Shown: one piece after another, positions 1 through 21,513 of the stretch
How positions within the stretch are numbered: the first letter of the stretch is position 1
Layout of the letters: every line of letters starts with the position of its first letter
NCBI RefSeq assembly: GCF_004365815.1
Contig: NZ_SODD01000041.1
Span: 1-21,513, forward strand
Direction of reading: 5' to 3'
Origin: Breznakia blatticola
Lineage (GTDB): Bacteria > Bacillota_I > Bacilli_A > Erysipelotrichales > Erysipelotrichaceae
DNA: 21,513 nucleotides
Position numbers and translations under genes: made by a program
The notes under the pieces: generated by a model
Told to the model about the DNA's origin: nothing
Seen by the model: only the letters and a program-made list of their open reading frames with translations
Database searches by the model: none

Positions 1-93
1 TTACCATCACAAGAAATGCTTTAAAGACACATAAATTATTCAGTACTTATCAGTGATTTATCGAGACTTGGTATGCACTGGTTGAATTAAGCC
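1..93. repeat. Left arm of a perfect terminal inverted repeat (93 bp; 95 bp if tt at 94-95 is included)
   Basis: I reverse-complemented 1-93 base by base and it equals 21421-21513 with 0 mismatches and 0 indels. The arm begins at window base 1. It carries the last 17 codons plus TGA (3-56) of an ORF entering from outside the window (...TITRNALKTHKLFSTYQ*). Confidence 0.97.
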
Positions 94-131
94 TTAAGGA
101 TTATAAATTCTACTTACTACTAATTTACGTT

Positions 132-1526
132 TTGGCTGCTACAGCTTTTGTTGCTCAAACATTCATTTCAAAGCTAATCCCTTTGAAATATATAGCTGTA
201 GTTGCTGTTATACTACTTTTGTTAGGACTAGCATTTTGGTTCTTATTATTCAGCAAAAGAATTAATAAATTTAATCGAGCGTTCGGTGTGTTTCTTACAG
301 TTGTACTTGCAATAAGTATGGTTGTTGGAAATGTATATTTGTATTCAACATATAGTGCACTAGGCAGTATAGCAAGTGATGATGATAAAGAAATTGGTAT
401 TTCAATTGTTGTATTAAAAGATTCAAGGTATAAAACAATAGAAGATTTAGATGGACAACCATTTGGTCGAGCAACTAACTTGCCTGATACAAATGTTGAT
501 AAAGTACAAGAAGAGTTATCACAAACATATAGTGACACTCTTGAAATGAAAAATTACGAAAGTGTAAATGATTTTGCTGATGCTCTATACAACAAAGAAG
601 TTGAAGCTATCTTACTAAATGAAGGTAGTCGAGGTTTGTTTGATGAAAAGCATCCTAAATTCAACGAAGAAACTAGAGTGATTAAAACATTTAAGTATAC
701 AGAAGAAGCAGTTAATATTGCTAAACCAGTAGATGTGACAAAAGATCCATTTGTAATGTATGTGTCAGGTATTGATACATACGGATCAGTGCAAACGGTG
801 TCACGTACAGATGTAAATATGCTATTAGCAGTTAATCCAAATACACATCAAATATTGATTGTAAGTATCCCACGTGACTATTATGTGGCACAAACTTGTC
901 AAGGGGATGCTTTGGATAAACTTACACACACTGGAATCTTTGGTATAGATTGTAGTGTGAGTACACTAGAAAATTTCTTTGGTATGGACATTAACTATTA
1001 TGGTCGTGTCAATTTTTCAAGTTTAGTTGATATTGTTGATGCTTTAGGTGGTATCACAGTTAATTCGCCAGTTGCTTTTAGTGGTGGTGAATATTCGTTT
1101 GTTGCAGGGGAAAATCATATTAATGGAAATGAAGCGTTGGCTTTTGTACGTGAAAGGTATTCACTTAGTGGTGGAGATAACGATCGTGTGAAAAACCAAG
1201 CTCGAGTAATTTCGGGAATTATAGATAAAGCAACATCACCATCTATATTAACTGGATATGTTGGATTAATGAATTCACTATCAAATTCATTTCAACTTAA
1301 TATGACAAGTGATGAACTATCTTCACTTGTACAAATGCAATTGAATGATATGAAAGGTTGGAAAATCAACCAAGTAAGTGTTAGCGGATCAGGGGAAACA
1401 AACTGGAGTCCGGCAAATGGATTCAATTCGTATGTAATGCGACCAAATATGGACACAGTCGAATACGCAAAAGAACTAATACAAAAAGTGTTGAATGGGG
1501 AAATCATTGACGAAAGTCAATTATAG
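132..1526 (+). CDS. LytR-CpsA-Psr (LCP) family glycopolymer ligase (CpsA/Wzg-like), apparently missing its native 5' end
   Basis: LCP blocks are visible in the translation: FVMYVSGIDTYG, SRTDVNMLLAVNP, IVSIPRDYYV, DKLTHTGIFG, NGNEALAFVRERYSLSGGDNDRVKNQ. TM helices precede an extracytoplasmic domain, as in streptococcal CpsA. The start is unresolved. TTG132 has no SD and lies inside a hydrophobic helix. The frame is open back to 57 with no ATG, GTG or TTG, and TGA 54-56 lies inside the repeat. Confidence 0.85.
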   Translation: MAATAFVAQTFISKLIPLKYIAVVAVILLLLGLAFWFLLFSKRINKFNRAFGVFLTVVLAISMVVGNVYLYSTYSALGSIASDDDKEIGISIVVLKDSRYKTIEDLDGQPFGRATNLPDTNVDKVQEELSQTYSDTLEMKNYESVNDFADALYNKEVEAILLNEGSRGLFDEKHPKFNEETRVIKTFKYTEEAVNIAKPVDVTKDPFVMYVSGIDTYGSVQTVSRTDVNMLLAVNPNTHQILIVSIPRDYYVAQTCQGDALDKLTHTGIFGIDCSVSTLENFFGMDINYYGRVNFSSLVDIVDALGGITVNSPVAFSGGEYSFVAGENHINGNEALAFVRERYSLSGGDNDRVKNQARVISGIIDKATSPSILTGYVGLMNSLSNSFQLNMTSDELSSLVQMQLNDMKGWKINQVSVSGSGETNWSPANGFNSYVMRPNMDTVEYAKELIQKVLNGEIIDESQL

Positions 1527-1588
1527 AAAATACTCATTCATTATAATTGATATTAAGTAATGATTAATTATGCTTAATTTTATAAAGC

Positions 1589-1658
1589 AAAAGGATAGAT
1601 GAATATCAAGTTCATGTAGTAGTGAAAATGATACAAAACTATCCTTTTATCTTTTTTT
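1589..1658. terminator. Bidirectional hairpin terminator between the convergent LCP and Nudix-fusion genes
   Basis: aaaaggatag (1589-1598) pairs with ctatcctttt (1639-1648). An inner stem atgaa/ttcat sits in the loop. A T-run follows at 1652-1658, and an A-run on the other side serves the minus-strand gene. Confidence 0.55.
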
Positions 1659-1726
1659 GACATAGATGAATAATAAATTATTGTAGTTGCTTAATATTCT
1701 TGTAACAAAAAGAATGATTACTGTTA

Positions 1727-3871
1727 TTATTTATTATTCTTTAGTGCTTTTAATTTTGCATATGCGGCAAGGGTGAAACCATCAACAAGAACATCTGAAT
1801 GAATTAGTTTTTCGAATTCTGAAATAGATAGTATTTCAAAATCAATTATTCCTTCATGTTTCTCTAATTTTTTTGGAAAAGTATTCGTTTTACAATAAAA
1901 AACATTCGCTGCGTTATTTGTCACGCCGGTATCTGGGTATATTAAACCAAGATTTAAAATGGATTCTTGAGTGATACATATTCCAAGTTCTTCGTATACT
2001 TCTTTGGTTAAATTATCAATATTTGATAAACCACTTTCGTTAAAACCGCGAACAAATGCGTACTGATAGTCTCTGATACTATGTCTAAATTGTTTGAGTA
2101 TGATTAGACGGTTTTCAAATTCAACTATAGCTACACTTCCTGGATTTGATAATGAAAGCATTCTCTCATAAGCAAAAGGTCTACCATTTTCATCATAAAC
2201 CATATCAACTACAAGTGTATGAAATGGACTATGATAAATAACACCAATTTTTAGATTATTTTCAGTCTCAAAAGTTACTATTTTCTTGTAGTCACGCTCG
2301 ATATTAAAAATTCCAATATTTTTGAATAATTCTGGATTTTGGGCAACTAGCACCTCGTACTCCATCCATTCTTTAGATTTTGAATAATCATTAGATCTAA
2401 ATAATGATTTGTTATTCTTTGTTTGATCTTGTTTGAATCGAATGTTAATTTTCCTTATATGAAATCTAACGAAATCAACTACTATTTCAACAATGTTTCT
2501 TATACTTTCGATCACATCGGGTATTTTTGTAAAAGACTGAATAATCCATAAGAAAAATGCAGAAATTAATATAGTAAAGAATGATGACCAAAAAGCACTT
2601 TCAGTAAGGATCAGGTTTCCTAGAAATTGAAATGAATTGGCTAATTCGTCGGCGATAATCTCAAATTCTACTACCAATATGAAAGTTAATATAGAGAGAA
2701 GTATAAAAAAAATGAATTGAATTAATACTTGTAAAAGCCAAGAGAAGTTTGATATGAGTTTTGAAATAGGATTTTCCCAATCATATATTTTGTTTACATT
2801 CTTTCTGATTCGATATGCAGTATCCCAATGAATAGTATTGATATTTGGTTTATTTTTTTTAAACAAACGTTTTGTCGTAGCAGGTATCGAATAGTTTAAA
2901 TAATGCCAATCGATTTCATTACAATTGAATTTATCTCCTAACTCTACATGATTATTATAGTAGTCGTCTAATTTATTGCTAAAATCATTAATAAAAGTAA
3001 TATCTTTTATTGATTGATATGGTTTCAATAGATTTCCTATATTTTCTTGTACAGTATAATTGTATACCATATCTATGATAGATTTCGCCATAATTTTACT
3101 TGTTCCAGTTTGGTCAGTATTTAAAAGACTAATCCAGCTTGATCGATTATTTATGTGGTTTTGAGGTATTTTTGATCTTGCCTTCTTTAAAAGTACTATT
3201 GCATCTGACACTTCTTCAGGATAGTTAGTTTTAATTTGGTTTGAAAGCACAAGGTGTTCAACGTAGAACAAAAGTTCTGAGAAAGTAGTTAGTTTATTTG
3301 AATTTGGTACATATGTATTTAAATTTAAACTAATAGATATTATCATTTTTAGGTAGTTTATTATGTACTCCAATTTGCGTTCACGAGGAGTTTTTATTTT
3401 TGGGTTTCCGCGAGATGTGCGTTCGCGTTTAAGTTCGTCTTCCAATTCCTCAAAGCTATTATAAGTTAGTGCTTTCTTGATTTTTCTAAGTTCATTTATA
3501 TCGTTTGGAGAAACTGGTATTCCAGAAAATATAAAGGGGAAAATACTACATTGATCACCTTTTTCTAAATGTTCAATATTTCTATTTACGACTTCTTGGA
3601 TGTATTCTGAAGGTGAAGAATAATTATAATTTGCTACTTTGAGAACACCTAACTGAAATAACTGGAAAACATGCTTATAACTTGCTTCATCATGGAGCAA
3701 ACTTAAAAAAGATTGTGAGTCAGTTAACTGGTTTAGACTTAATACAATACAGTGTCCTTTATTAACGATTTCTTCATACATTTTTTCATGAGCTAGTATA
3801 ATTTCTTTAGCTGAGGAGTTTCTAACTGAGTCTAACTCAAATAGATAAATATTTTTACTAGATTTATTCAT
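1727..3871 (-). CDS. Fusion protein: ~375-aa N-terminal domain of unknown function + two-TM hairpin + C-terminal Nudix hydrolase domain (ADP-ribose/NDP-sugar pyrophosphatase-like)
   Basis: The 732-codon ORF is trimmed to ATG at 3871 (MNKSSKNIYLFELD...), preceded by AAGGAG with 7-nt spacing. The 23-residue Nudix box GFNESGLSNIDNLTKEVYEELGI (about 1979-2047) fits GX5EX7REUXEEXGU in exact length, with E16/E19/E20 kept, R15->K and E7->L. Upstream beta-strand region (GSVAIVEFENRLIILKQFR) and the C-terminal DGFTLAAYAKL resemble NudF/NudK-type enzymes. Two hydrophobic helices, WLLQVLIQFIFFILLSILTFILVV and AFWSSFFTILISAFFLWIIQSF, map to about 2533-2740. Confidence 0.75.
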   Translation of the reverse strand: MNKSSKNIYLFELDSVRNSSAKEIILAHEKMYEEIVNKGHCIVLSLNQLTDSQSFLSLLHDEASYKHVFQLFQLGVLKVANYNYSSPSEYIQEVVNRNIEHLEKGDQCSIFPFIFSGIPVSPNDINELRKIKKALTYNSFEELEDELKRERTSRGNPKIKTPRERKLEYIINYLKMIISISLNLNTYVPNSNKLTTFSELLFYVEHLVLSNQIKTNYPEEVSDAIVLLKKARSKIPQNHINNRSSWISLLNTDQTGTSKIMAKSIIDMVYNYTVQENIGNLLKPYQSIKDITFINDFSNKLDDYYNNHVELGDKFNCNEIDWHYLNYSIPATTKRLFKKNKPNINTIHWDTAYRIRKNVNKIYDWENPISKLISNFSWLLQVLIQFIFFILLSILTFILVVEFEIIADELANSFQFLGNLILTESAFWSSFFTILISAFFLWIIQSFTKIPDVIESIRNIVEIVVDFVRFHIRKINIRFKQDQTKNNKSLFRSNDYSKSKEWMEYEVLVAQNPELFKNIGIFNIERDYKKIVTFETENNLKIGVIYHSPFHTLVVDMVYDENGRPFAYERMLSLSNPGSVAIVEFENRLIILKQFRHSIRDYQYAFVRGFNESGLSNIDNLTKEVYEELGICITQESILNLGLIYPDTGVTNNAANVFYCKTNTFPKKLEKHEGIIDFEILSISEFEKLIHSDVLVDGFTLAAYAKLKALKNNK

Positions 3872-4045
3872 GGTATATCTCCTTTTTTCATCATACATTC
3901 TATATAGAAAATTACCAAAATGCAAAGGTATAAGTTGATGTTTTATGTTAGTGATATAATAAATCTCTTGAATCTTATTTCTACCTTGTCTAAAAACATA
4001 GTATTTTACCCTGTGATTGTATAGATATTATTATTCAGATAAATC

Positions 4046-4073
4046 TTGATAAATATAGAACATAAGTTATAAT
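4046..4073 (+). promoter_or_regulatory. Sigma-A-type promoter candidate for galE
   Basis: TTGATA (4046-4051), a 16-nt spacer, then TATAAT (4068-4073), about 65 nt upstream of galE. Confidence 0.5.
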
Positions 4074-4091
4074 TTAGGAGTCTAGATACTG

Positions 4092-4140
4092 AAAGGAGTG
4101 GCATGAAATGATACGATTGATTTCATGTGATATTATATGA
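4092..4140 (+). promoter_or_regulatory. galE leader: SD, 2-codon and 10-codon upstream ORFs, and a hairpin; the uORF stop overlaps the galE ATG
   Basis: AAAGGAG lies at 4092-4098. ATG 4103 gives MK*. ATG 4108 (9 nt after GGAG) gives MIRLISCDII* with TGA at 4138-4140, overlapping the galE ATG at 4137-4139 (ATATGA). catgaaat (4102-4109) pairs with atttcatg (4120-4127). galE itself has no SD in the 15 nt before its ATG. Confidence 0.35.
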
Positions 4141-5144
4141 AAATTTTAGTTACAGGTGGGTTAGGGTTTATCGGAAGTCATACATGTGTTGAATTATTGA
4201 ATAATGGATACGATGTAGTGGTTATTGATAACTTATATAACTCAAAAATTGAAGTAAAAGACTATATTAAAGAAATTACAGGAAAAGACATTGTTTTCTA
4301 TGAAGCGGATGTTTGTGATAAACAAGCGGTTGATAAAATCTTCGCAGAAAATGACATTGATGCAGTGATTCACTTTGCAGCGTACAAAGCAGTTGGAGAA
4401 TCTGTGCAAAAACCAATTGAATACTATCAAAACAACTTGGTCAGTACACTTACCCTTTGTGATGTTATGCGTAATCATGGTTGTAAGAACTTTGTATTCA
4501 GTTCTAGTGCAACGGTTTATGGTGATCCAGAAAGAGTGCCTATTGATGAAAAATGTGCTGTAGGGGCTACTACAAACCCATACGGGACTACAAAAGTTAT
4601 GATAGAACAAATTCTTAGAGATATTTATATTTCTGATAATGAGTGGAATGTTATCTTATTAAGATACTTTAATCCAATTGGTGCACACAATAGCGGATTG
4701 ATTGGTGAAAACCCTGTTGGTATTCCAAATAACATCATGCCTTACATCGCTATGGTGGCTAATAAAGAATTACCTGAACTTCACGTTTTTGGTGATGACT
4801 ATGATACACCTGATGGAACAGGAGTACGTGACTATATTCATGTGGTTGACTTAGCTAAAGGTCATGTAAAAGCCATGGATAAATTATCAAAAGATAAAGT
4901 TGGTGTTGATGCAATCAACTTAGGAACTGGAAACGGTTATAGTGTATTACAATTAGTTAAAGCATTTGAAGAAAGTAACGGTGTTGAAGTACCATATGTT
5001 ATTGATCCACGTAGAGCTGGTGATATTGCTACATGTTATGCGGCAACAGATAAGGCTAGAGAAGTACTTGGATGGGTTGCAGAAAAAGATATTAATGACA
5101 TGATGAAAGATTCATGGATGTTTATTCAAAACAGAAATAAGTAG
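4137..5144 (+). CDS. galE: UDP-glucose 4-epimerase
   Basis: 335 aa. N-terminal Rossmann motif MKILVTGGLGFIGSH, catalytic region SSSATVYG and YGTTK (YxxxK), and full-length GalE-like collinearity (HFAAYKAVGES, RYFNPIGAH, RDYIHVVDLA). Confidence 0.93.
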   Translation: MKILVTGGLGFIGSHTCVELLNNGYDVVVIDNLYNSKIEVKDYIKEITGKDIVFYEADVCDKQAVDKIFAENDIDAVIHFAAYKAVGESVQKPIEYYQNNLVSTLTLCDVMRNHGCKNFVFSSSATVYGDPERVPIDEKCAVGATTNPYGTTKVMIEQILRDIYISDNEWNVILLRYFNPIGAHNSGLIGENPVGIPNNIMPYIAMVANKELPELHVFGDDYDTPDGTGVRDYIHVVDLAKGHVKAMDKLSKDKVGVDAINLGTGNGYSVLQLVKAFEESNGVEVPYVIDPRRAGDIATCYAATDKAREVLGWVAEKDINDMMKDSWMFIQNRNK

Positions 5145-5192
5145 ACATAAAAATGGGAAAAAATGAGGCTGTAACGAATACAGTCACTAAAT

Positions 5193-5235
5193 AAAAAATG
5201 GAGCTGACCACATATAGTGGATAGCTCCATTTTTT
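5193..5235. terminator. Strong hairpin terminator inside the IS left end (also positioned to terminate galE transcripts)
   Basis: aaaaaatggagct (5193-5205) pairs with agctccatttttt (5223-5235), a 13-bp stem. An inner ccac/gtgg stem is present. The A-run/T-run flanks make it bidirectional. Confidence 0.6.
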
Positions 5236-5249
5236 GGTAAAATATGTTT

Positions 5250-6801
5250 ATGAATACACAAACAAATGAGACTCACAAATATACCCTTCCTCAGCAAGAA
5301 AAGTATACCACTAGATTTATCAATTAAAATTGATAAATCTAGTGATAAGCTTCAATGAAGTGATGGAAGGAATCAATCTAGCAAAGTACCTTGTGAAACA
5401 ACACAAAGGTAGACAAGAATATAATCCCTTCACGATGATAAAAGTTGTCCTATTTACTTATATGAATCAAATCTATTCTTTACGCAAAATTGAAAAAGCT
5501 ATACGAACGGACATACGCTTTATGTGGTTAGCCCAGGAAGAACAACCATCACATATGGCAATTAAACGCTTTATCGATGAAAAGTTAAGATATAATATCA
5601 AGAATATTTATCATGATGTATTAAATCGTATTATTGAACTTGATGAAGTAGATACATCGACTATATACATCGATGGAACAAAACTACAAGCAAATGCTAG
5701 AAAACTTAGTTTTGTGTGGAAAAAACTGCTATAAAAACTAGAGATAAAATATTTGCGAAGTTGAATGAAGATGTACATAAAATACAGGAGTACTTACCTA
5801 TGATACAGGAGAAGGATGTTTGGACATTGGAAGATGTTGATGAAATTAGAAGTCAATAAATTTCATTGTCTGAAAAGGATGGTATCACACACGTCTATGG
5901 CAAGGGAAAGAGAAAAACACCTATTCAACGCATCTATGATACATTAGATAAATACTATATAACTCTAGAAAGTTATCTTGAGCGTATAAGAATTTGCGGG
6001 GATCACAATAGTTATGGCAAGACGGATAACGATGCAACAACGATGCATTTTAAGGAAGATTATTATATGAAAACTGGTGTGTTTCATCCAGCATATAATA
6101 TACAAATTGGAGTGTCAGATGAATATATTATGCATGCAACGGTTCATCAAGATCGTTCTGATTAAAAAACATTCATTCCATTTTTAGAAGAATACAAGAA
6201 ATATCGTGGAATTAACGATTTAAAGAATGTCGTTGCGGATGCAGGGTATGGAAGTTATGACAATTAGTTTTACTGCTTAGAAAACAAGTTGAATAGTTAT
6301 ATTAAATACAACACCTATCGCATAGAGAAAACAGCAAAGTTTAAGAAGAAAATCTACAACAAAAATAACTTCGAAAGAAATGCGTGTGGTGAATACATCT
6401 GTCCAGAAGGAAAATTTTTCCACTATGCATTTGAAACGGAGGATAAAAGAAGCAAATATTATCGTATTAATGAATACTATGAAAGCGAGTGTGATGGATG
6501 TCTTGTGAAAGAGGAATGCACCAAAGCGAAAGGTAATAGAAAAATCACACATAATCCAGTACTACAAGAATTTCAAAAGAATGCAAAAACACTATTGGAT
6601 AGTGAAGATGCTATTCGTTTTAGAACGCAAAGATCCATACAAGTTGAGGGTGCGTTCGGAGTAATCGAACAAGACTTCGGTTATGAGAGAGTGCAACGAA
6701 TAGGGCTAAAAAACGTTAGAATGGAAGTTCTCTTGGTTTGTCTTGGATATAATCTAAAAAAATATCATAATAAGAAGCATAGACCGAACATATTAAACTA
6801 A
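5250..6801 (+). pseudogene. IS1182-family DDE transposase, multiply disrupted
   Basis: The fragments carry family-typical blocks: PLDLSIKI, GRQEYNPFTMIKVVLFTYMNQIYSLRKIEKAIRTDIRFMWLA, IYIDGTKLQANA, NVVADAGYGSYDN, and RSIQVEGAFGVIEQDFGYERVQRIGLKNV...LGYNLKKY. The frame is broken by +1 shifts near 5308 and 5344, a shift in the A6 run at 5720-5725, and in-frame stops TAA 5857-5859, TAA 6163-6165 and TAG 6265-6267. Confidence 0.85.
5309..5344. repeat. 36-bp perfect palindrome (17-bp arms, 2-nt centre) in the 5' coding part of the transposase
   Basis: cactagatttatcaatt (5309-5325), aa, then aattgataaatctagtg (5328-5344). I checked the arms by reverse complementation. Confidence 0.9.
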
Positions 6802-6840
6802 ACATTTTCAATCAAAATCTACATAGATGTTTTCATAATG

Positions 6841-6870
6841 CCTTAAATCCTGATATTTAAGGTGTTTTTT
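6841..6870 (+). terminator. Rho-independent terminator after the transposase ORF, inside the IS right end
   Basis: ccttaaat (6841-6848) pairs with atttaagg (6855-6862) across a 6-nt loop, followed by a T6 run at 6865-6870. Confidence 0.55.
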
Positions 6871-6960
6871 AATATTTTCGTCAAAGCTACAAAAAAAGGG
6901 GGCTGATAAACCCCATAGATCATAAACTAATCTATTTCGTTACAACCCCATTTTTATCTT

Positions 6961-7006: not shown

Positions 7007-7477
7007 ATGAAAAAAGTAATGTTTATATCTAGCACAGGTGGTCATTTATCTGAGTTGTTGCAATTGCAACCTATTTTTGATGAATACGATTATCACATTG
7101 TTACTGAAAAAACTAAATCAAATATAAAGTTAATGGATAGATTCCCTAATCGTATTAGTTTTGTTAAATACGGAACAAAACACAATTTATTCACTTATTT
7201 TTTTATATTTCCATTTAATTGTATTCTATGCTTAATACTTTATATACGATTAAAGCCAGATGTAGTCGTATCTACTGGGGCTCATACAGGCATACCAATG
7301 TTATACATAGCGCATTTTTTTAAGAAAAAAGTAGTCTTTATTGAAACGTTTGCTAATATACGAACAAAATCTCTTTCTGGTAAGCTTGCTTACAAAATTG
7401 CTGACACTTTTATTGTGCAATGGGAAAGTATGCTTGAACTTTATCCAGATGCAATCTATGCGGGGTGGATATTCTAA
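7007..7477 (+). CDS. Alg14-like membrane subunit of a split glycosyltransferase (Cps14F/PssD-like)
   Basis: 156 aa. N-terminal MFISSTGGHLSELLQL motif typical of Alg14-family proteins, a central TM segment, and AGAGGA upstream. Paired with an Alg13-like gene through a TAATG overlap. Confidence 0.8.
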   Translation: MKKVMFISSTGGHLSELLQLQPIFDEYDYHIVTEKTKSNIKLMDRFPNRISFVKYGTKHNLFTYFFIFPFNCILCLILYIRLKPDVVVSTGAHTGIPMLYIAHFFKKKVVFIETFANIRTKSLSGKLAYKIADTFIVQWESMLELYPDAIYAGWIF

Positions 7478-7950
7478 TGATATTTGTTACAGTAGGAACT
7501 CAAGATAAAGGATTCCCTCGATTGCTTGAGGAAATTGAACGACTAATTATTAAAGGAGTTATTAAGGAAGAGGTCATCGCTCAAATTGGTTCTACAAGTG
7601 TAGATTTAAAACATATTAAAACATTTGATTATACAGATATGGAAGAGTTTCATTCATATATAGTGAAGTGCACATTCTTGATTACACATGCTGGGGTTGG
7701 GTCGATTTTAGCTGGATTAATAGAAGATAAAAAAGTAATTGCTGTTGCACGGAGAGAGAAATATGATGAACATGAAAACGAACATCAGACTGAAATTTGT
7801 GAAGTTTTTGATGAAATGGGATACGTTATTGGTTGTTTAGATGCAAATGAATTAGAAGATGCTGTTCAAACAATTGAAATGTTCACTCCGCGGAAATACG
7901 TAAGAAATAACGAATATTTTTGTTCGTTGATGAAGTCAATTATTGGTTAG
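7477..7950 (+). CDS. Alg13-like catalytic subunit (GT28 C-terminal domain; Cps14G/PssE-like)
   Basis: MIFVTVGTQDKGFPRLL... and ITHAGVGSIL motifs. I chose ATG 7477 (overlapping the upstream TAA as TAATG) over the track's GTG 7465. Confidence 0.8.
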   Translation: MIFVTVGTQDKGFPRLLEEIERLIIKGVIKEEVIAQIGSTSVDLKHIKTFDYTDMEEFHSYIVKCTFLITHAGVGSILAGLIEDKKVIAVARREKYDEHENEHQTEICEVFDEMGYVIGCLDANELEDAVQTIEMFTPRKYVRNNEYFCSLMKSIIG

Positions 7951-7961
7951 GAGATTTGCTT

Positions 7962-9131
7962 GTGATTTATATAAAAATAATAATACAGAGTATTTGCTTT
8001 TTTTGTTCTAAAGTGATATCAATTTTGTTTAGCGTATGTGAAATTAAAGGAAATAAAGTTTTCTTTTATAGTTATAGAGGAAATAAATATGCAGATAATC
8101 AGAGATCTTTCACTGAATACTATTTAGAAAAAGGTGAAAATGATTTGGAAATTGTCTGGGGGTATAGAAATGATGCTACTAGAGATTCAATTCCTGAAGG
8201 TGTCAAGAAGGTGAAGATGATTTCTTTCAAGTATTTCTATCACTTATATACATCAAGGTTCATTTCAACTAATCAAAGGATATCGTTTTTGGACTTCATT
8301 AGCAAGAGACATGGGCAAGTATATATTCAAACTTGGCATGCAAGTGCTGCGTTGAAGAAAATTGAAGTAGATGCATTGAGAGATTTACCTGAAATTTATG
8401 TTCGGGAAGCTAAAAGAGATTCAAAAATGACTGATTTAATTATTTCGGGAAGTCGCCAGTATTCTGAAGTATATAAAAATAAATTTTGGTATAATGGTCC
8501 GTTATTAGAGATTGGGACAATGAGAAATGATGTGTTATTTAAAGATAACAATACACGAGTAAAAATAATAAAGCAAAAACTGCAGATTCCGTTAAATCAG
8601 AAAGTTGTATTATATGCTCCAACATTCAGAAATAATCCAGATTTATCAATAAATTTTGATTTTGACTATGGAATGAATTACGAAATGATATCAGAGGCGT
8701 TTGAGAAAATGATTGGTGAGAACATTATACTTGTAAAGCAACATCCCAATTTAAAAAATCACAAGTTGACAGAAACAAAATGGTCGAGAGATATTACAGA
8801 CTATCAAGATATACAAGAACTGTTGTTAATTGCAGATGTACTTGTTACTGATTACTCGTCAGTATTATTTGATTTCATTCTTATGAAGAAACCGCTTTTT
8901 ATTTATGCAAGTGATTTCGATACATACTCACGTGATTTTATGGTTGATTTAAATGAAATGCCTTGTTCAATTTCAAGGAATAACGAACAGTTAAAAGAGT
9001 CAATATTGATTTTTAATGATAAAGAATATCTAGATCGATTATATGATTTTGATAAAAAACATATAGGTACTTTTGAAACAGGAAATGCAAATAAAGATTT
9101 TTATAAGTATTTGAAAAAAAATATAAATTAA
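7962..9131 (+). CDS. CDP-glycerol glycerophosphotransferase family protein (TagB/TagF-like)
   Basis: Family motifs VLYAPTFRNN, LVTDYSSVLFDF and QTWHASAALKK. I chose GTG 7962 (AGGAG 7949-7953, 8-nt spacing) over TTG 7920, which would overlap the upstream gene. Confidence 0.8.
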   Translation: MIYIKIIIQSICFFCSKVISILFSVCEIKGNKVFFYSYRGNKYADNQRSFTEYYLEKGENDLEIVWGYRNDATRDSIPEGVKKVKMISFKYFYHLYTSRFISTNQRISFLDFISKRHGQVYIQTWHASAALKKIEVDALRDLPEIYVREAKRDSKMTDLIISGSRQYSEVYKNKFWYNGPLLEIGTMRNDVLFKDNNTRVKIIKQKLQIPLNQKVVLYAPTFRNNPDLSINFDFDYGMNYEMISEAFEKMIGENIILVKQHPNLKNHKLTETKWSRDITDYQDIQELLLIADVLVTDYSSVLFDFILMKKPLFIYASDFDTYSRDFMVDLNEMPCSISRNNEQLKESILIFNDKEYLDRLYDFDKKHIGTFETGNANKDFYKYLKKNIN

Positions 9132-9145
9132 GAAGAGAGGGAATT

Positions 9146-10657
9146 ATGCGTACAAAAAAAGCTTTGAAAAATATTGTTTTCAATTTTATACAACAGCTTA
9201 TTGGGATTGTAGTTAATTTTATTTTACCACCATTAATAATTGGAAGGTTTGGAGATAGTATAAATGGACTTGTACAAACCATTCGACAAATGATGCAATA
9301 TGCACAATTAACAGGTGCCGGGATTGGAGCGAGTAGTACGTATGCGATGTATAAGCCTTTACACGAACAAAACTACCATACACTAAGTGGTGTATATAAT
9401 GCGACAAAGAAGATGTTCACAAATGCAGGAAATCTCTTCACAATTATAGTTTTAATTCTTTCGGTAGGTTATCCTTTTTTTGTAGAAGGAATAGACTTTA
9501 AAACAGTAGCACTTTCTGTGTTAGTTATTGGAATTTCTGGAATTTCTGAATTTTATGTATATGGGAAATATCAATCAATAATTAATGCAAATCAAGATAA
9601 CTATATAATTGCCATAGCACAAACAATAGGAAATGTTGCAAATGTAGTTGTTTCAGTGATTTTAATATATTTAAACTGTAATATAGTAATTGTTTTACTC
9701 GGTGGGAGTGTGATTTATTTACTTAGGATATTAATTTTGACGAGATTTGTTCGATCTAACTATCAATACTTAGATCCTAATGTAAGACCTATGATGGATT
9801 TAATTGATCAACGTAATGATGCAATTGTTCATCAAATTTCAGGTTTAATTGTTTTAAGTAGTTCTACTATTATTTTAAGTTTGATGTGTGGTTTGGAAGA
9901 AGCAAGTGTGTACTCAGTTTATGCGCTTGTTTTTGGAGGCATTAATACAATATGTCAAATTGTAGCAACTGCAATTTACTCTTCATTTGGGGAAGTGATA
10001 GTAAAAGGGAAAAACGATGTGTTGAAGGCTGCATTTAATGTATATGAATGCTTATTTTTCTTTGCAATTTTTATTGTATTTACTGTTGCTTATGTGATGA
10101 TTATGCCGTTTATAAGTATTTATACGAATAATTTATCAGTAAATGTAGAATACTTTTTACCTTTACTTGGATCTTTGTTTGTATTTGTAGGTATTGCGAA
10201 TAATTTGCGTGTTCCAGCTCGAACTTTGGTGGATGCTGCTGGGCACTTTAAGCGTACGAGAAATCGTTCGGTTGTTGAAATGATAATTAATCTAGTAGGA
10301 CAAATTGTGTTTACTTACATGTTTGGTATTTATGGTGTGCTTTTAGGATGTTTAGCTTCATATTCGTATCGGACAATTGATTTTATTTTATACACAAATA
10401 AGCATATTATCAAACAATCAAATTTAGTGAGTATTCGAAGAATTGTGGTTGGATTTGCCGCTAGTATTTGTATGGTTCTACTTTTGCAAGTAATTGTACC
10501 CTTAAGAATGACTGGATATGTTGAGTGGGTTATTTATGGATTCATTGCCACGTTTGCAACCAGTGTTGTGTTTTTTATTATTTATATTATCTTCGATCAA
10601 AAAACTATGAAGGAGATTTACAATATATTAAAAAATATCTTAAAGAAAAGTAATTAG
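9146..10657 (+). CDS. wzx: Wzx-type oligosaccharide flippase (MOP superfamily polysaccharide biosynthesis protein)
   Basis: 503 aa and polytopic, about 12-14 hydrophobic segments. Typical N-terminus MRTKKALKNIVFNFIQQLIGIVVNFILPPLIIGRFG. Located in a glycan locus. Confidence 0.75.
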   Translation: MRTKKALKNIVFNFIQQLIGIVVNFILPPLIIGRFGDSINGLVQTIRQMMQYAQLTGAGIGASSTYAMYKPLHEQNYHTLSGVYNATKKMFTNAGNLFTIIVLILSVGYPFFVEGIDFKTVALSVLVIGISGISEFYVYGKYQSIINANQDNYIIAIAQTIGNVANVVVSVILIYLNCNIVIVLLGGSVIYLLRILILTRFVRSNYQYLDPNVRPMMDLIDQRNDAIVHQISGLIVLSSSTIILSLMCGLEEASVYSVYALVFGGINTICQIVATAIYSSFGEVIVKGKNDVLKAAFNVYECLFFFAIFIVFTVAYVMIMPFISIYTNNLSVNVEYFLPLLGSLFVFVGIANNLRVPARTLVDAAGHFKRTRNRSVVEMIINLVGQIVFTYMFGIYGVLLGCLASYSYRTIDFILYTNKHIIKQSNLVSIRRIVVGFAASICMVLLLQVIVPLRMTGYVEWVIYGFIATFATSVVFFIIYIIFDQKTMKEIYNILKNILKKSN

Positions 10658-10688
10658 TTGTGCATGAAAAGCATATTTTTGCTATAAT
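10658..10688 (+). promoter_or_regulatory. Possible internal promoter ahead of the GT2/DUF2304/polytopic module
   Basis: Extended -10 TGCTATAAT at 10680-10688. TTGTGC at 10658-10663 has a long 19-nt spacer. Sits in the 54-nt gap after wzx. Confidence 0.3.
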
Positions 10689-10711
10689 TGATTGGATTGG
10701 AGGTTTTAGAC

Positions 10712-11401
10712 ATGTTAAAAACACTAATTATTGTGCCAGCATATAATGAAGCTTTAAATATTGAGAAAGTTGTTAATGATATTGTTGTAAATGCACCTGA
10801 AGCTGATTATATAATTGTTAATGATGGATCAAAAGATAATACTTTAGATGTTATTAAAAAAAATAGTTTTAATTGCATTAATGGGTTTATCAACTTAGGA
10901 TTGTGGGGAGCAGTTCAAACAGGTTTTAAATACGCTCTTGATTCAGGATATGATGTAGCAATCCAGTTTGATGGAGACGGTCAACATTCAGCAGAATATG
11001 TAAAAACTCTCGTTGAAGAAATTGAAAATGGAAATGATATCGCAATTGGATCACGCTTCGTTACAGAGAAAAAACCAATGACAAGTCGAATGTTAGGAAG
11101 TCGACTTATATCTATGGCAATATTTCTTGTAACTAGAAAGAGAATTAATGATCCTACCAGTGGAATGAGAGCATATAATAGAACAACTATGATAGACTAT
11201 GCCACTGATATGAATAACCCACCTGAACCAGATACACTTGTGTATATGTTACGTAAAAATAGAAAGGTGAAAGAAGTTCAAGTAGAAATGACTGATAGAG
11301 AGTTTGGAGAGTCTATCTTCAATATATCTCATACAATTAGTTATATGAGTAGAATTATGATTTCTATATTATTAATTCAACCATTTAGAAAAGTGAAATA
11401 G
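10712..11401 (+). CDS. GT2 glycosyltransferase, polyprenyl-phosphate sugar synthase-like (GtrB/DPM1/EpaI-like)
   Basis: LIIVPAYNEALNI, IIVNDGSKDNT, QFDGDGQH and DPTSGMRAYNR motifs. I chose ATG 10712 (GGAGG 8 nt upstream) over TTG 10688. Confidence 0.75.
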   Translation: MLKTLIIVPAYNEALNIEKVVNDIVVNAPEADYIIVNDGSKDNTLDVIKKNSFNCINGFINLGLWGAVQTGFKYALDSGYDVAIQFDGDGQHSAEYVKTLVEEIENGNDIAIGSRFVTEKKPMTSRMLGSRLISMAIFLVTRKRINDPTSGMRAYNRTTMIDYATDMNNPPEPDTLVYMLRKNRKVKEVQVEMTDREFGESIFNISHTISYMSRIMISILLIQPFRKVK

Positions 11402-11411
11402 AGGTAAGAAT

Positions 11412-11774
11412 ATGATACCATCAGATTTACAGATAGTTTTCGTTACAACTAGTTTATTTACATTTGTATACATTTTAGGACAAATACGAAAACATAAAAC
11501 AAATATTAATGATTCAATCATTTGGATTCTATGGAGTGTGGGATTACTTATTATGAGCATTTTCCCAAAACTTGCAATGAGTCTTGCAACACTATTAGGT
11601 TTTCAATCAACTAGTAATTTTATAATTGTTGTGTTTATTTTCTTCATTTACATTATTGTATTCTCACAGGTTAATAAAATTTCTTTGTTAGAAGAAAAGA
11701 ATAAACAACTTGCTCAAAAATGCAGCATATATGCTTATGAGCTTGAGAAAGAAAAATTAAAAGGAAAAGAATAA
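11412..11774 (+). CDS. Small membrane protein, DUF2304-like (typical partner of the preceding GT2 type)
   Basis: 120 aa. Hydrophobic helices are followed by the LLGFQSTSNF motif and a C-terminal charged coiled segment LLEEKNKQLAQK...ELEKEK, which matches my memory of the DUF2304 pattern. Confidence 0.65.
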   Translation: MIPSDLQIVFVTTSLFTFVYILGQIRKHKTNINDSIIWILWSVGLLIMSIFPKLAMSLATLLGFQSTSNFIIVVFIFFIYIIVFSQVNKISLLEEKNKQLAQKCSIYAYELEKEKLKGKE

Positions 11775-13978
11775 TGTTTGAAGTAATAAAATTAACGTTA
11801 ATAACAGTTATACTATTTTTTTCATCGAAAGCGTTTGGTGAACTTTTAAATATGAAATGGAAGAATCCATTTTCAAGTGTTTTAGGAGTTGGATATTTAG
11901 CTAATTTAGCTTGTTTTTTTGTTATTACATTACCAGTAATGATTTTTAAACTCTCAACACAATATCTCTTTGTGTTGGGACTTTTGTATTTGTGTATTTT
12001 AATCCTTGCAATTTATAAAACTATACAAAAAAAAGTTTTATTTCGATTCGATAAAATTGACATAGTTATACTAAGTTGTTCAGTTGTGTTACTTGGTTTT
12101 TACGGATTTGTGCTAGATTTCGGTTTGATTGAAACTTATGATTCGATATTTTATAGTAGTTTGACAAACAATGCGTCAAATTCACATGCTATATCTGTAG
12201 TGGATCCGTATACGGGATTGTCCAATTTGCAAAATTTCTACAAATATATGTCATACTACTATTTAGCTAGTTTTTATGGAGTGCTTTTTCAACTCAAACA
12301 CGCATACTTGGTTCTAGTTTGGTCTTTTACGTTTATGAACTTCATATTGTTCTTTAATACAGCATTCACTGTATGCCGAATTTCGAAGAACAAAGTGGTA
12401 AATAATATAATAAGTGTGTTTTATTTGTCACTGATATTGAGCATGTTTCGCGCTCCATTCAATGCGTTGCACTTAACAACGTTTGTTGTTTCAATATATG
12501 TGTTTAGATTTACTTTTCGTTTATTTAAGAAGAATTATGACATTCTTCCATATTTAATCATTACAATTATTGCATGTATTTCATTCACATCAACATCATT
12601 ATTTACCATTTTGCCTTTTGTTTTGGTGCTGTTAATTACAAATGCATGCATAAAAGATAGAATTCCTTATAAATATTTATACTATTTAACAATTCCGGTG
12701 TTGGTACTCGGTTTCTTGTATGTGTATGAATCACTGAAGAATCCTTTTGTACTAGTTGCGGCAATTGCTATCTTGATTTGCTTTAGTCTTTTATTTCTAT
12801 GGAAGCCGTTTGATACTATCGTTAGATATGGAAGCTTATTTTTAGGAATTATAGTATTTACTGTCTTTTTAATCCCTGATAAATTACCAATTCAAAATCT
12901 TATTTCTAACAACTTTATGCAATCAACAGCTATCAGTAAAAATGAATCAATTCCAGAAAATGAATCAGGAGATATAATTGAAGATTGTTTGGGTATTCAT
13001 TCGCTGAAGGTAAAGAACAATGATTCAATGTATGACTATAAAAAAGGTTTAGGGTCTTCGATAAACTATATGATAGGAGATGGCGATTTAAAAATTACTA
13101 CAATAATGATTACTTTCTCTCATTCTATTCCAAAGTATGGAGGAATGTTATTTTTGTTGATTTACGGATTTATCAAAAGAAGAAAATCATATGCCTTTGT
13201 TTCATATGTAGTATACTTATTATTGTTTAATAATCCGCTAGTTGCTAATGGTGTGAATTTACTTACTTTTGGACTGAGTCAAAGGATTGTACTGTTTTTT
13301 AATACGTATTATGCTATTTTGGGAGTTAAGTACTTTTTTGATTACTTTATCGATTATGTGTGGACTAAGTATAAGATTTCAGTTAGTTTACAAAGTGTTT
13401 TACGCTTTACATTTTATAGTTTAACGATATGTTTGATTACTTCAATATGTACATATGGAATAAATATTATGCCAAAAAGTTATACAAATTATAATTTCTT
13501 ATACAAAGTTCCGAATAGAATCGTAGAGCTCGAGGATAAAATATATGAACTTAATCTAGATAATGGTAAAGATTATAAGGAACGCTACTTTTTCACAGAA
13601 AGTGCATTCAATGTGAAATTGCTAGATCGAAGAGGTGAGAGCAAGGTTACTGTAATGAACAGCAAGGAATATATGAATTACTTCGGGAACCGAGATGTTA
13701 TCACAGATAAAACAATAATTAATGACTATTTCGAAAGTGAAGGTTTGTATAGTTTGAACTCAGTTGTAAATAAATGCAATTTGATGGAATTAAATGAAGA
13801 GCAAATAAAGCCAAATTGCGTTTGTTCTATAAAGAATATTGTTAAAAATTATGGTGTTGATTATATAGTTACAAAAGCTCCAAAAAATAGTGTATTTAAA
13901 GAAAGTTTACAAGATGATTTTTTAATAGTTTGGGAAAATGATGATTACATAATATTAAGAAATAAGGAGAGTGTATAG
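11774..13978 (+). CDS. Large polytopic membrane protein with a C-terminal soluble domain; candidate GT-C-type extracytoplasmic glycosyltransferase or polymerase
   Basis: 734 aa with many hydrophobic segments through about residue 560, then a hydrophilic ~170-aa tail. Coupled to the upstream gene by TAATG. Paralogous in N- and C-terminal features to 18587-20455. No family motif that I can name with certainty. Confidence 0.55.
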   Translation: MFEVIKLTLITVILFFSSKAFGELLNMKWKNPFSSVLGVGYLANLACFFVITLPVMIFKLSTQYLFVLGLLYLCILILAIYKTIQKKVLFRFDKIDIVILSCSVVLLGFYGFVLDFGLIETYDSIFYSSLTNNASNSHAISVVDPYTGLSNLQNFYKYMSYYYLASFYGVLFQLKHAYLVLVWSFTFMNFILFFNTAFTVCRISKNKVVNNIISVFYLSLILSMFRAPFNALHLTTFVVSIYVFRFTFRLFKKNYDILPYLIITIIACISFTSTSLFTILPFVLVLLITNACIKDRIPYKYLYYLTIPVLVLGFLYVYESLKNPFVLVAAIAILICFSLLFLWKPFDTIVRYGSLFLGIIVFTVFLIPDKLPIQNLISNNFMQSTAISKNESIPENESGDIIEDCLGIHSLKVKNNDSMYDYKKGLGSSINYMIGDGDLKITTIMITFSHSIPKYGGMLFLLIYGFIKRRKSYAFVSYVVYLLLFNNPLVANGVNLLTFGLSQRIVLFFNTYYAILGVKYFFDYFIDYVWTKYKISVSLQSVLRFTFYSLTICLITSICTYGINIMPKSYTNYNFLYKVPNRIVELEDKIYELNLDNGKDYKERYFFTESAFNVKLLDRRGESKVTVMNSKEYMNYFGNRDVITDKTIINDYFESEGLYSLNSVVNKCNLMELNEEQIKPNCVCSIKNIVKNYGVDYIVTKAPKNSVFKESLQDDFLIVWENDDYIILRNKESV

Positions 13979-13979
13979 T

Positions 13980-14813
13980 ATGAGTTTAAGCAATATTACA
14001 ATGATAATAAAAACATTTGAACGACCAGATTGTATACGAAAACTAGTAAAATCAATATATAAATACTATCCTGAAGCAATTGTCTTGATTGGTGATGATA
14101 GTGAAGTGTCATGCAAAGATGAGATTGAAGGTAAATATAAAAATAAACAAATAAAAGTTTATGAGCTACCGAAAGATAGTGGACTATCATTTGGTAGAAA
14201 CTTTTTATTGGAAAAAGTCGATACACCTTATTTCTTATTATTAGATGATGATTTTGTTTTTGACAATAGAACTAAAATAGTTGAGTGCTTGAACGTTTTT
14301 ATGAAAAATGATATCGATATACTAGGTGGTTTGTTCAGAAATTATAAGATTATCAATCATTGGTATGACAATCTTATTGTATTCGCACAAAAAATACTTC
14401 GTTATGAACTGACTACAAATTACATTGGAACTATTGATTTTGATGAAAATACGAAGATACTTACTACAAAGTATGAATTACATCGATTTCCTAAATATGA
14501 AAAAACTGATATTGTGCATAATTTCTTTATAGCAAAGACAGATAAGGTACGAAACGAGAACTTATGGGATAATGATCTTAAGCTTCAAGAGCATACGCCA
14601 TTCTTTTTTGAAGCCAAGAAAAAAGGATTTAAAGTATACACAACAAATCAACTAAGTGTAAGACATATGCCAAAGCGAATGAAAAAATACAATAGTTTCC
14701 GTGGTAGGGATTTTGTCCAAGTATTTATGCATAAATACAATATTAATCAAATCAGAATGTCAAATGATGACGGAGTTAATAAAGTAATTAATAAGAAGGA
14801 TAAATATGATTAG
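13980..14813 (+). CDS. GT-A fold (GT2-like) glycosyltransferase
   Basis: ITMIIKTFERPDCIRKLVKSI, VLIGDDSEV and LLLDDDFVF (DxD) motifs. I chose ATG 13980 (AAGGAG 13964-13969) over GTG 13971. Confidence 0.6.
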   Translation: MSLSNITMIIKTFERPDCIRKLVKSIYKYYPEAIVLIGDDSEVSCKDEIEGKYKNKQIKVYELPKDSGLSFGRNFLLEKVDTPYFLLLDDDFVFDNRTKIVECLNVFMKNDIDILGGLFRNYKIINHWYDNLIVFAQKILRYELTTNYIGTIDFDENTKILTTKYELHRFPKYEKTDIVHNFFIAKTDKVRNENLWDNDLKLQEHTPFFFEAKKKGFKVYTTNQLSVRHMPKRMKKYNSFRGRDFVQVFMHKYNINQIRMSNDDGVNKVINKKDKYD

Positions 14814-15807
14814 TATTATTGTACCTGTGTATAATGCAGAACGTTATGTTGAACAATTAGTTAATAATATCAAAAATCAAACACACAAAGATTTTGAGGC
14901 TATTTTAGTTAACAATAATTCTAAAGATAATACAGAAAAACGTTTAAAAGAGTTAATCAAAGATGATTCGCGTTTTAGAATTCTTTTTGAAAGTAAGCAA
15001 GGTCCAAACTATGCAAGATTGAAAGGATTTGAATCTGCGATTGGTGAATATGTATACTTTTTTGATAGCGATGACCGAATTTATCCACATACAATAGAAA
15101 ACTTGTATAGAAATGCAATTGAAAATCATAGTGATATAGTTATTGCAGATTATGTTGAAATTGACGAAACAGGAGAAATTACTAAACGATGTAAAGGAAT
15201 TAATTATTCAATAAATGATTCTTCGAGTATATTTGATCCTGAAAAGACATTTTTTGTAAAGATGCCACTTTGGAATAAATTGATTAAGAGAAATATGCTT
15301 AAAAAAGAATATTTTGCTTTTTCTTCAATTGGTGAAGATATGCTTATATCTTTATGTTGTGTTGCTAATTCAACTAAAATATCATATTTAGACAAAGAAA
15401 TATATCAGTACTTAGTAACTGAAAACGGATTATCATACGAAGTTACACTAAAGAATTCTTTAGGGATTCTTGAAACTTTCAAAGTGATGGATTTAATCTT
15501 CGATAATGAGTTCAGAAAGCGCTATGATGAACAAAAAGTATATATTCAAACACAACATTTGTTGTTTCGTTTGATGCGCTCAATATTACTAAATAAGAAC
15601 GACAGAAAAATTGCATATATGCAGTTGACGAATTTCTTGAAGACAAGTAATTATAAAAATAACGTTTACTATAAAAAAAGTATTCCTTTTAAAGGAGCAA
15701 GTTTTCTTTTAACAAACTTATTCATGTATAAAGTAAGCAGCGTAATTTTAAAACCATTTCTAGTAAATAAAACATTACAAAAAGTGTTAAAGAAATTAGA
15801 TAAATAG
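14806..15807 (+). CDS. GT2 family glycosyltransferase
   Basis: ISIIVPVYNAERYVEQLVNNIKNQTHKDFEAILVNNNSKDNT and FFDSDD motifs. The ATG overlaps the upstream stop (ATGATTAG). Confidence 0.85.
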   Translation: MISIIVPVYNAERYVEQLVNNIKNQTHKDFEAILVNNNSKDNTEKRLKELIKDDSRFRILFESKQGPNYARLKGFESAIGEYVYFFDSDDRIYPHTIENLYRNAIENHSDIVIADYVEIDETGEITKRCKGINYSINDSSSIFDPEKTFFVKMPLWNKLIKRNMLKKEYFAFSSIGEDMLISLCCVANSTKISYLDKEIYQYLVTENGLSYEVTLKNSLGILETFKVMDLIFDNEFRKRYDEQKVYIQTQHLLFRLMRSILLNKNDRKIAYMQLTNFLKTSNYKNNVYYKKSIPFKGASFLLTNLFMYKVSSVILKPFLVNKTLQKVLKKLDK

Positions 15808-15815
15808 GAGAATTT

Positions 15816-16586
15816 ATGAATATTGAAGTACTCATGTCGACAATGAAACGTTCATCTATAAATGAATTGAAGCTAAAGGAGAAAAATATTTCGACTCCCC
15901 TGTTAGTTGTGAATCAACTCGCTGACTCAGATTCTCACGTGATAGAGGATGAATGTAGATTCTTTTCCTATACCGAAAAAGGATTATCAAGATCAAGAAA
16001 CATACTGCTTAAAAATGCAAAAGGTGATGTTGGGATAATTACTGATGATGATATTACATTTATTGCAGAATATAAAACGATTTTATGTAACGCATATGAA
16101 AAGCATCCTGAGGCTGGTATTATTACATTCAATCTAAAAATAGGAGATGATACAAAAGGCTGGGACAAAGAGTTTACACATACTTTTTGGTCGTTAATGA
16201 GTGTAGCATCCTGTCAAATAAGTATAAAACCATCAGTAATAAGAAATTTAGATATTCATTTTAATGAGAGCTTTGGTTTAGGAGCAAGTTTTAAAAGTGG
16301 TGAAGAAAATCTTTTTCTGAATGATTGTCGAAAAAAAGGTGTAACTATTATTCATGTTCCAATTACATTGTGTTCTCATCCACACGAGGATACAACTGGA
16401 GAACTATGGAGTGCTGATTTAGTAAAGTCAAAAGGTGCACTTTCAACTGCTTTATTAGGTAAGAAACATGTTTTATTTCTATTGTATTTTATATTGGTAA
16501 AGCATAAAGAGTATAAAAAAACAATGAAAATAAAGGAGTTTTACAGAAATTATATGAATGGTGTGCATGAATATAGGAGTAGATAA
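15816..16586 (+). CDS. Probable GT-A-like glycosyltransferase
   Basis: 256 aa with a GIITDDDITF (DxD) motif and a GEENLFLNDCRKKG block. GGAG is 5 nt upstream. The family assignment is tentative. Confidence 0.5.
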   Translation: MNIEVLMSTMKRSSINELKLKEKNISTPLLVVNQLADSDSHVIEDECRFFSYTEKGLSRSRNILLKNAKGDVGIITDDDITFIAEYKTILCNAYEKHPEAGIITFNLKIGDDTKGWDKEFTHTFWSLMSVASCQISIKPSVIRNLDIHFNESFGLGASFKSGEENLFLNDCRKKGVTIIHVPITLCSHPHEDTTGELWSADLVKSKGALSTALLGKKHVLFLLYFILVKHKEYKKTMKIKEFYRNYMNGVHEYRSR

Positions 16587-20455: not shown

Positions 20456-20457
20456 AA

Positions 20458-21371: not shown

Positions 21372-21402
21372 TATAATGTTATCATTATCAAGTTAAGGAG
21401 GG
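21372..21402 (+). promoter_or_regulatory. -10-like element and strong SD preceding the orphan start codon
   Basis: TATG-TATAAT, with the hexamer at 21372-21377 and no good -35. AAGGAGGG at 21395-21402 lies 3 nt before ATG 21406, the same spacing style as the wzx RBS (GAGGGAATTATG). Confidence 0.4.
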
Positions 21403-21405
21403 AAT

Positions 21406-21456
21406 ATGAGAATTAAAAAAGGCTTAATTCAACCAGTGCATACCAAGTCTCGATAA
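21406..21456 (+). pseudogene. Orphan gene start: ATG + 4 native codons (MRIKK), then read-through into the right repeat arm to TAA
   Basis: ATG AGA ATT AAA AAA | GGC TTA ATT CAA CCA GTG CAT ACC AAG TCT CGA TAA. Codons 6-16 are repeat sequence. It reads as a real translation start cut off at 21420/21421. Confidence 0.5.
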
Positions 21457-21513
21457 ATCACTGATAAGTACTGAATAATTTATGTGTCTTTAAAGCATTT
21501 CTTGTGATGGTAA
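21421..21513. repeat. Right arm of the perfect terminal inverted repeat
   Basis: Exact reverse complement of 1-93, ending on the last base of the window. The inner terminus reads GGCTTAATTCAACC... going outward. Confidence 0.97.

Follow-up and report, generated by a model that had tools for sequence, protein, structure and literature searches.

Why does a draft contig that carries the surface-glycopolymer genes of Breznakia blatticola begin and end with the same sequence in opposite orientation, and does this repeat mark out the glycan locus as a mobile unit? The window, which is the whole stretch of DNA analysed here, has 21,513 nt and is one complete draft contig of this species. Its proteins are found in NCBI as TDW13942-TDW13959, with locus tags EDD63_141xx (exact look-up of ten proteins), and we take the sequenced genome to be that of the type strain. 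Our reading, to which we assign a probability of about 0.7, is that the two arms of the repeat represent the final 93 bp at one end of a repeated transposable element, called E below and most likely an insertion sequence or derived from one, which has at least two inverted chromosomal copies on either side of a native cell-wall glycopolymer locus.

Identical arms with unrelated flanks

The following features define the two ends of the window.

1-93, + strand: left arm, the terminal 93 nt of E, with the terminus at base 93 (...GGTTGAATTAAGCC) and the outer side cut at the contig start
94-95, no strand: TT, coincidental flank bases opposite AA at 21419-21420, belonging to the cpsA/LCP gene
21421-21513, - strand: right arm, the same terminal 93 nt of E inverted, with the terminus GGC at 21421

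A repeat-finding tool reported that positions 1-95 and 21419-21513 are 100% complementary, which gives a perfect 95-nt inverted repeat at the extreme ends of the window, far above chance level. The terminal 24-mer GGCTTAATTCAACCAGTGCATACC (outward reading) was found only at 70-93 on the - strand and at 21421-21444 on the + strand, with 0 occurrences expected by chance. When read outward, the arm terminus starts with GGCTTAATTC, or in its longer form with GGCTTAATTCAACC. The apparent length is 95 nt instead of 93 because the flank bases at 94-95 and 21419-21420 match by coincidence. A palindrome, CCTTAAGG, lies across the left junction (92-99), and it is this palindrome, together with the AA at 21419-21420, that led the tool to give the longer figure. 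The inner flanks begin with the 8-mers ttaaggat (TTAAGGAT, 94-101) and ttaaaaaa (TTAAAAAA, 21413-21420). The two copies of E therefore have identical, sharp termini that abut unrelated flanks at different sites, as is expected of a transposable element. Searches of the arm returned no tRNA, no Rfam family, and no notable hairpin or unusual fold. An earlier note on this DNA had listed the identical arms, a TGA at 54-56, the 37 nt from there to base 93, and both flank 8-mers, and this description was accurate throughout.

The left arm interrupts cpsA

The gene that adjoins the left arm is the first gene of the glycopolymer locus.

94-1526, + strand: cpsA/LCP-family gene without its first 22 nt (start codon plus 7.3 codons); Pfam PF03816, NCBIfam LCP_trans_Cps2A

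The protein encoded in the window starts at KDYKF. Its closest homologue (96% identity, 484 aa) starts with MNKTRKWF-KDYKFYLLLIYV, and more distant homologues start with MKKTNKLY-KDYKF. The empty site is available from five Logan contigs of the relative with the 96% identical LCP protein, which read gaggaaaattttATGAATAAAACAAGAAAATGGT / TTAAGGATTATAAATTC (also given as gaggaaaattttATGAATAAAACAAGAAAATGGT / TTAAGGATTATAAATTCTAC; the slash marks the position of the break). The cpsA gene is uninterrupted in this relative, and the comparison, which concerns the left junction only, places the break between bases 93 and 94. The sequence of the relative, ...AAAATGGT / TTAAGGATTAT..., identifies the TT at 94-95 as gene sequence. 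Identity between the window and the relative begins at base 94 and is random upstream, so the foreign DNA ends at base 93, with a terminus that reads GGC... outward. This agrees with the earlier note, which had placed the boundary of the element at the same base.

The left arm thus takes the place of the first 22 nt of cpsA and of its promoter. There is no start codon from the TGA of the arm to a TTG at 132, which is the first in-frame start of the gene and has no ribosome-binding site, and we found no convincing promoter-like site in the arm that reads outward towards cpsA. Because the start and promoter have been lost, no start codon precedes the TTG at 132, and no promoter-like site faces the gene, cpsA is probably inactivated and likely a pseudogene. 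The first gene of the surface-glycopolymer locus has lost its start, and attachment of the polymer may be impaired or may be carried out by a paralogue.

The right arm follows a putative gene start

At the other end of the window, the right arm is preceded by a short stub.

21395-21420, + strand: putative gene-start stub, consisting of a good ribosome-binding site (AAGGAGGG), an ATG at 21406, and five codons (MRIKK), followed by the right arm

The MRIKK frame opens 60 nt past the last glycosyltransferase gene and ends eleven codons into the arm. Read through the arm, it encodes MRIKKGLIQPVHTKSR, followed by a stop. From the ribosome-binding site and the ATG alone, we infer that the stub is the real start of a second gene that was cut at its fifth codon. 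The gene is predicted from signals only because no relative has this part of the locus. All nine of the cps proteins that were checked from 7007-21345 are singletons, found only on this contig.

Other identities of the stub were considered and rejected. If MRIKK were the missing N-terminus of cpsA, as would hold for a circular molecule that has a single element with long terminal repeats, the join would be out of frame unless 2 nt were removed, and cpsA starts with MNKTRKWF or MKKTNKLY in its relatives. A circular permutation also conflicts with gene order, as the gene upstream of cpsA in every relative encodes an M29 aminopeptidase and not a Branch-family glycosyltransferase. Nor does MRIKK agree with the start, MEKNIKKK, of the 332-aa second LCP gene located ahead of galE in other Breznakia.

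The length of the repeat matches the k-mer of the assembler

In the de Bruijn graph of SPAdes, a contig that enters a repeat on both sides ends exactly k bases past the point where the paths diverge. Judging from the style of its locus tags and accessions, the B. blatticola genome appears to be a JGI isolate genome. The JGI recipe for isolates uses SPAdes --careful -k 25,55,95 and discards contigs <1 kb (PMC11320900). In the window, the paths diverge between bases 95 and 96 and between bases 21418 and 21419, and the common stretch of 95 nt is as long as the largest k-mer of this recipe. For this reason, the repeat is almost certainly longer than its visible part and was most likely cut off by the assembler.

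We compared the window with an assembly made at a different k. Logan contig SRR8436184_177 (L001; k=31) corresponds to window positions 66-6836 with 0 mismatches over 6,771 nt, and SRR8436184 is presumably the read set of the B. blatticola genome. The first base of the Logan contig is window base 66, 30 nt (k-1) short of base 96, and the reads therefore contain the same branch point. Two identical copies of E, each longer than 95 nt, would block a short-read assembler, and the contig would end k = 95 nt past the divergence. The perfect 95-nt ‘terminal inverted repeat’ would then exist because the assembler could not pass these copies. It would be the footprint of an assembler halting at a repeated mobile element and not a structural feature of the glycan locus. 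The suspicion, voiced in the earlier note, that the true repeat is longer and is cut by the window was well founded: the visible length equals a k of 95, and the assembly at k=31 branches at the same point.

The open frame in the arm is at chance level

The arm had been proposed to be the end of a larger, gene-carrying element, on account of a frame that is open from the contig edge.

3-56, + strand: open frame (frame 3 from base 3), TITRNALKTHKLFSTYQ and then TGA at 54-56, with 37 nt left to base 93; proposed transposase tail, with no coding evidence

The open tail is at chance level. A frame that is open for at least 17 codons from the edge was seen in 64% of the mononucleotide shuffles of the arm and in 84% of random 93-nt slices of the window. 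We note that this frame and cpsA are in the same frame, with only the TGA at 54-56 between them.

We searched the tail against a protein collection that includes both the NCBI and the Logan proteins of the B. blatticola genome; the search covers only the representatives of clusters at 90%. With the tail as a triple repeat, no protein scored. With the tail as an X-padded profile, there was no candidate with even three common 5-residue words among 5.8 billion protein representatives. Simulations of the power of these searches indicated that an exact match would reach an E-value of ~2 for the tripled query and of ~5e-9 for the X-padded profile. The 17 putative C-terminal residues had no Pfam or NCBIfam match, and a tblastn search against plasmids was empty. 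A match would be expected if the tail were coding, as the proteins of B. blatticola are present in the collection that was searched. Since there was none, the tail is either non-coding or part of a gene that was never assembled or called.

The proposal is therefore upheld in one part. The arm is the end of a longer inserted repeat, as indicated by the cut at k length and by the interruption of cpsA, but a gene tail finds no such backing. The specific claim that 3-56 encodes the C-terminal tail of a transposase is not supported, in view of the chance-level frame, the lack of a match in 5.8 billion representatives, and the lack of a Pfam or NCBIfam match.

The kind of element

Although E is seen only to 93 nt, it is repeated, inverted, and interrupts genes, and it is probably a transposable element, most likely an insertion sequence (IS) or IS-derived, to which no family is assigned. 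Exact-match scans with 18-28-mers taken from the arm gave no occurrence in GTDB (one genome per species), JGI metagenomes, or IMG/VR, and blastn of the arm against plasmids and phages returned nothing. We also asked whether E is another copy of a decayed IS1182-family element that lies within the window (5159-6955), and rejected this since the termini and the C-terminal tail both differ.

The main alternative to an element of the IS kind takes E to be short (<~1 kb) and non-autonomous, either MITE-like or a solo IS end, without any gene of its own and with the tail as a chance open frame in non-coding DNA. We consider this unlikely. The chance level of the tail speaks for it, as does the lack of any protein with three 5-mers of the tail among the 5.8 billion representatives despite the inclusion of the proteins of this genome, and the removal of contigs <1 kb by JGI would explain why an E-encoded protein is absent. 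However, SPAdes with paired 2x150 reads usually bridges repeats well below the insert size unless there are many copies, and the protein search was limited to representatives of the 90% clusters. Furthermore, an ordinary IS would account for the arm just as well, if this were its 5' (promoter) end and its transposase gene started past the contig edge.

E could also be a mobile element that no catalogue yet lists, since neither its 93-nt end nor the putative tail of 17 residues had a match in any of the collections searched (genomes, metagenomes, viruses, plasmids, and proteins). With two inverted copies of such an element, the whole 21-kb glycan locus would be a cassette that can be inverted or mobilised, and the insertion would have switched cpsA off. 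We regard this as quite improbable.

We compared E with the ISL3 family, to which the earlier note had tentatively linked it. ISL3 elements are common in low-GC Firmicutes, and the host of E is a low-GC Firmicute. Members of the family have a transposase with the catalytic domain DDE_Tnp_ISL3 (PF01610), terminal inverted repeats of some 15-40 bp whose typical start is GGCTCTT, and target-site duplications of 8 bp. The ISL3-family element ISArsp7 has a length of 1,451 bp, an inverted repeat that starts with GGCTCTTCGCGGTTGG..., the terminus GGCTCTTCGCGG, and an 8-bp direct repeat (PMC6305408). The terminus of E likewise begins with GGCT, and a stop codon closes its open frame within a few tens of nt (37 nt) of the end. 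Yet GGCT is all that GGCTTAATTCAACC and the ISArsp7 terminus have in common, for the one end of E that was compared, and the sequences part after the fourth base (GGCTTAATTC in E and GGCTCTTCGC in ISArsp7). The statement in the earlier note that ISL3 ends begin with GGCT(CTT) holds for ISArsp7 (PMC6305408), whereas the arm shares only the GGCT. It is possible that E belongs to ISL3, and just as possible that the arm is the 5' end of an IS with its gene past the edge of the contig, or that it terminates a short non-autonomous element. The ISL3 assignment itself is not supported, given that only these four bases agree with a documented terminus and that the tail has no homologue or family match.

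The glycan locus looks native

The position of cpsA is informative about the origin of the locus. The gene order BipA, one optional gene, M29 aminopeptidase, LCP, and variable cps genes is found in MTC7 (Erysipelotrichaceae bacterium), in two further lineages, and in other Breznakia, and at least four lineages have cpsA at this conserved place on the chromosome. In B. blatticola, the orthologues of the block from the DUF4438 gene to the M29 gene are TDW09092-TDW09101 (locus tags EDD63_163x), on a contig of 9,155 nt. This block occupies 8,868 nt in a relative, which leaves ~290 nt on the B. blatticola contig. There is thus room for an intergenic region, a 22-nt stub, and a 95-nt arm, and not for an intact cpsA of 1,455 nt. 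The backbone contig appears to stop where the cpsA gene of the window begins, as would be expected if E had simply inserted into a native gene. We infer that the other side of the left E copy carries the 5' stub of cpsA. Under a simple insertion, the end of the 9,155-nt contig past the M29 gene would read ...ATGAATAAAACAAGAAAATGGT, perhaps then TTAAGGAT, and then the other end of E. Since cpsA is in its conserved place by the M29 aminopeptidase and BipA genes, the locus looks native and not brought in by a composite transposon, and the copies of E would be later arrivals.

The earlier note had suggested the opposite relationship, in which E would be an ISL3 insertion sequence and the arrangement IS-locus-IS a composite-transposon-like unit; on this reading, the glycan locus would have been imported. 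As in Tn5 and Tn10, two identical inverted ends bracket a block of genes (here 21.3 kb), and the same end faces the locus on both sides. The GGCT terminus, as in ISArsp7 (GGCTCTTCGCGG..., with an 8-bp duplication), and the stop codon 37 nt from the end fit an ISL3 element. A composite transposon has one target duplication around the unit as a whole or occupies different sites in different genomes. Unlike the cargo of Tn5/Tn10-type transposons, though, the block bracketed by E shows no sign of moving as a unit and begins inside a truncated resident gene, at a conserved chromosomal position with conserved upstream synteny. The left boundary therefore lies within a native gene that was itself cut by E and not around imported cargo, and the cpsA stub would be expected at about the point where the backbone contig stops. 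In addition, the match to the ISL3 terminus comprises 4 nt only, the tail is without a homologue or family match, and ttaaggat and ttaaaaaa, the inner flanks, show no relation to each other, in line with independent insertions. Taken together, this makes import of the locus by an ISL3 composite transposon very improbable. What remains of the proposal is an inserted repeat in two inverted copies, both with the same end towards the locus; the IS family and the transposase are not supported. As for a composite-transposon-like unit, the geometry fits, but cpsA is in its native slot and the M29 contig has no room for an intact cpsA.

Origin of the two copies

In our preferred reading, later insertion of E at a native locus, E would have inserted into the 5' ends of two genes that border the cps locus. 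One copy would lie inside cpsA/LCP, the first gene of the locus, after nt 22, and the other would cut the gene that comes next after the last glycosyltransferase gene, at a point five codons in. Two identical inverted copies of E would result from two independent insertions, or from one insertion followed by an inversion-type event.

The second of these routes can be put more strictly, as one original copy of E followed by an IS-mediated inversion (intramolecular replicative transposition or homologous recombination) that left the 21-kb segment flipped or flippable. Inverted copies with the same end inward are the expected product of inversion-type intramolecular transposition, and both junctions are at most 5-8 codons from gene starts, but nothing in the window separates an inversion from two independent insertions, and we hold this version to be highly improbable. 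Whatever their origin, identical inverted repeats that bracket a 21.3-kb segment are substrates for homologous recombination and could promote its inversion.

It is scarcely credible that the arms are an assembly artefact, a chimeric or fold-back product of the assembler with junctions that are not real, for although the arm is as long as the k of the assembler and the repeat is placed at the very ends of the contig, a second assembler (k=31) also produced the junction from the arm (66-95) to cpsA and stopped at the same branch point, in a contig whose 6,771 nt carry 0 mismatches, and cpsA is truly without its 5' end when compared with its relatives.

IS copies are known to break short-read assemblies and to flank or interrupt cps loci, for example in streptococci and other Firmicutes. 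E resembles these in that its copies are identical, are located at contig ends (cut at k) and in resident genes, and flank a hypervariable glycan locus in which there is also another IS, now decayed (the IS1182-family remnant at 5159-6955). It differs in that its terminus and putative tail match nothing that was searched, E being known here from one 93-nt end alone. A mobile element at contig ends that interrupts genes of a capsule locus is an ordinary situation, and it leaves the understanding of insertion sequences and of capsule loci unchanged.

Content of the locus and its surroundings

Further features of the window concern the polymer and the history of the locus.

1727-3925, - strand: protein of 732 aa without a Pfam family
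5330-5734, 5866-6165, and 6289-6801: ORF fragments of the IS1182-family remnant that match NF033551, DUF772, and DDE_Tnp_1_6, with frameshifts and stops
7007-9131: Alg14-like and Alg13-like (Glyco_tran_28_C) pair, followed by a CDP-glycerol glycerophosphotransferase gene
11774-13978, + strand: protein of 734 aa without a Pfam family
18587-20455, + strand: protein of 622 aa without a Pfam family

The content of the locus after cpsA is completely different between strains. For this reason, the cps locus is hypervariable, with signs of IS-associated rearrangement. The galE gene is at 4137-5144 in the window, 2.6 kb from cpsA, and adjoins the IS1182 remnant. In other Breznakia (L010, 8990-11008, and L012, 13305-21830), galE is instead located at the far end of the cps locus, between the 332-aa second LCP gene upstream and choline (lic-like) genes downstream.

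Because the Alg14/Alg13-like pair precedes a CDP-glycerol glycerophosphotransferase gene, the gene content suggests a polymer that is teichoic-acid-like and contains glycerol phosphate, rather than a plain capsule. Candidate roles for the three large proteins without a Pfam family are those of a polymerase, a ligase, or a membrane protein in the pathway. The 734-aa and 622-aa proteins were looked up and are singletons at 90% identity.

The decayed IS1182-family element is located between galE and the Alg14-like gene and has imperfect terminal repeats, AAAAATGAGGCTGTAACGAA and TTCGTTACAACCCCATTTTT. At 6836, within the right end of this remnant, the Logan contig of the same strain is broken off, which suggests that there are other copies with that end. 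The DUF4438 gene is the first on the 9,155-nt backbone contig, which lacks the Amidase_3 gene that relatives have ahead of DUF4438. This points to another assembly break at that position and possibly to another repeat copy. The locus tags of B. blatticola reach contig number 163, suggesting a fragmented, repeat-rich genome.
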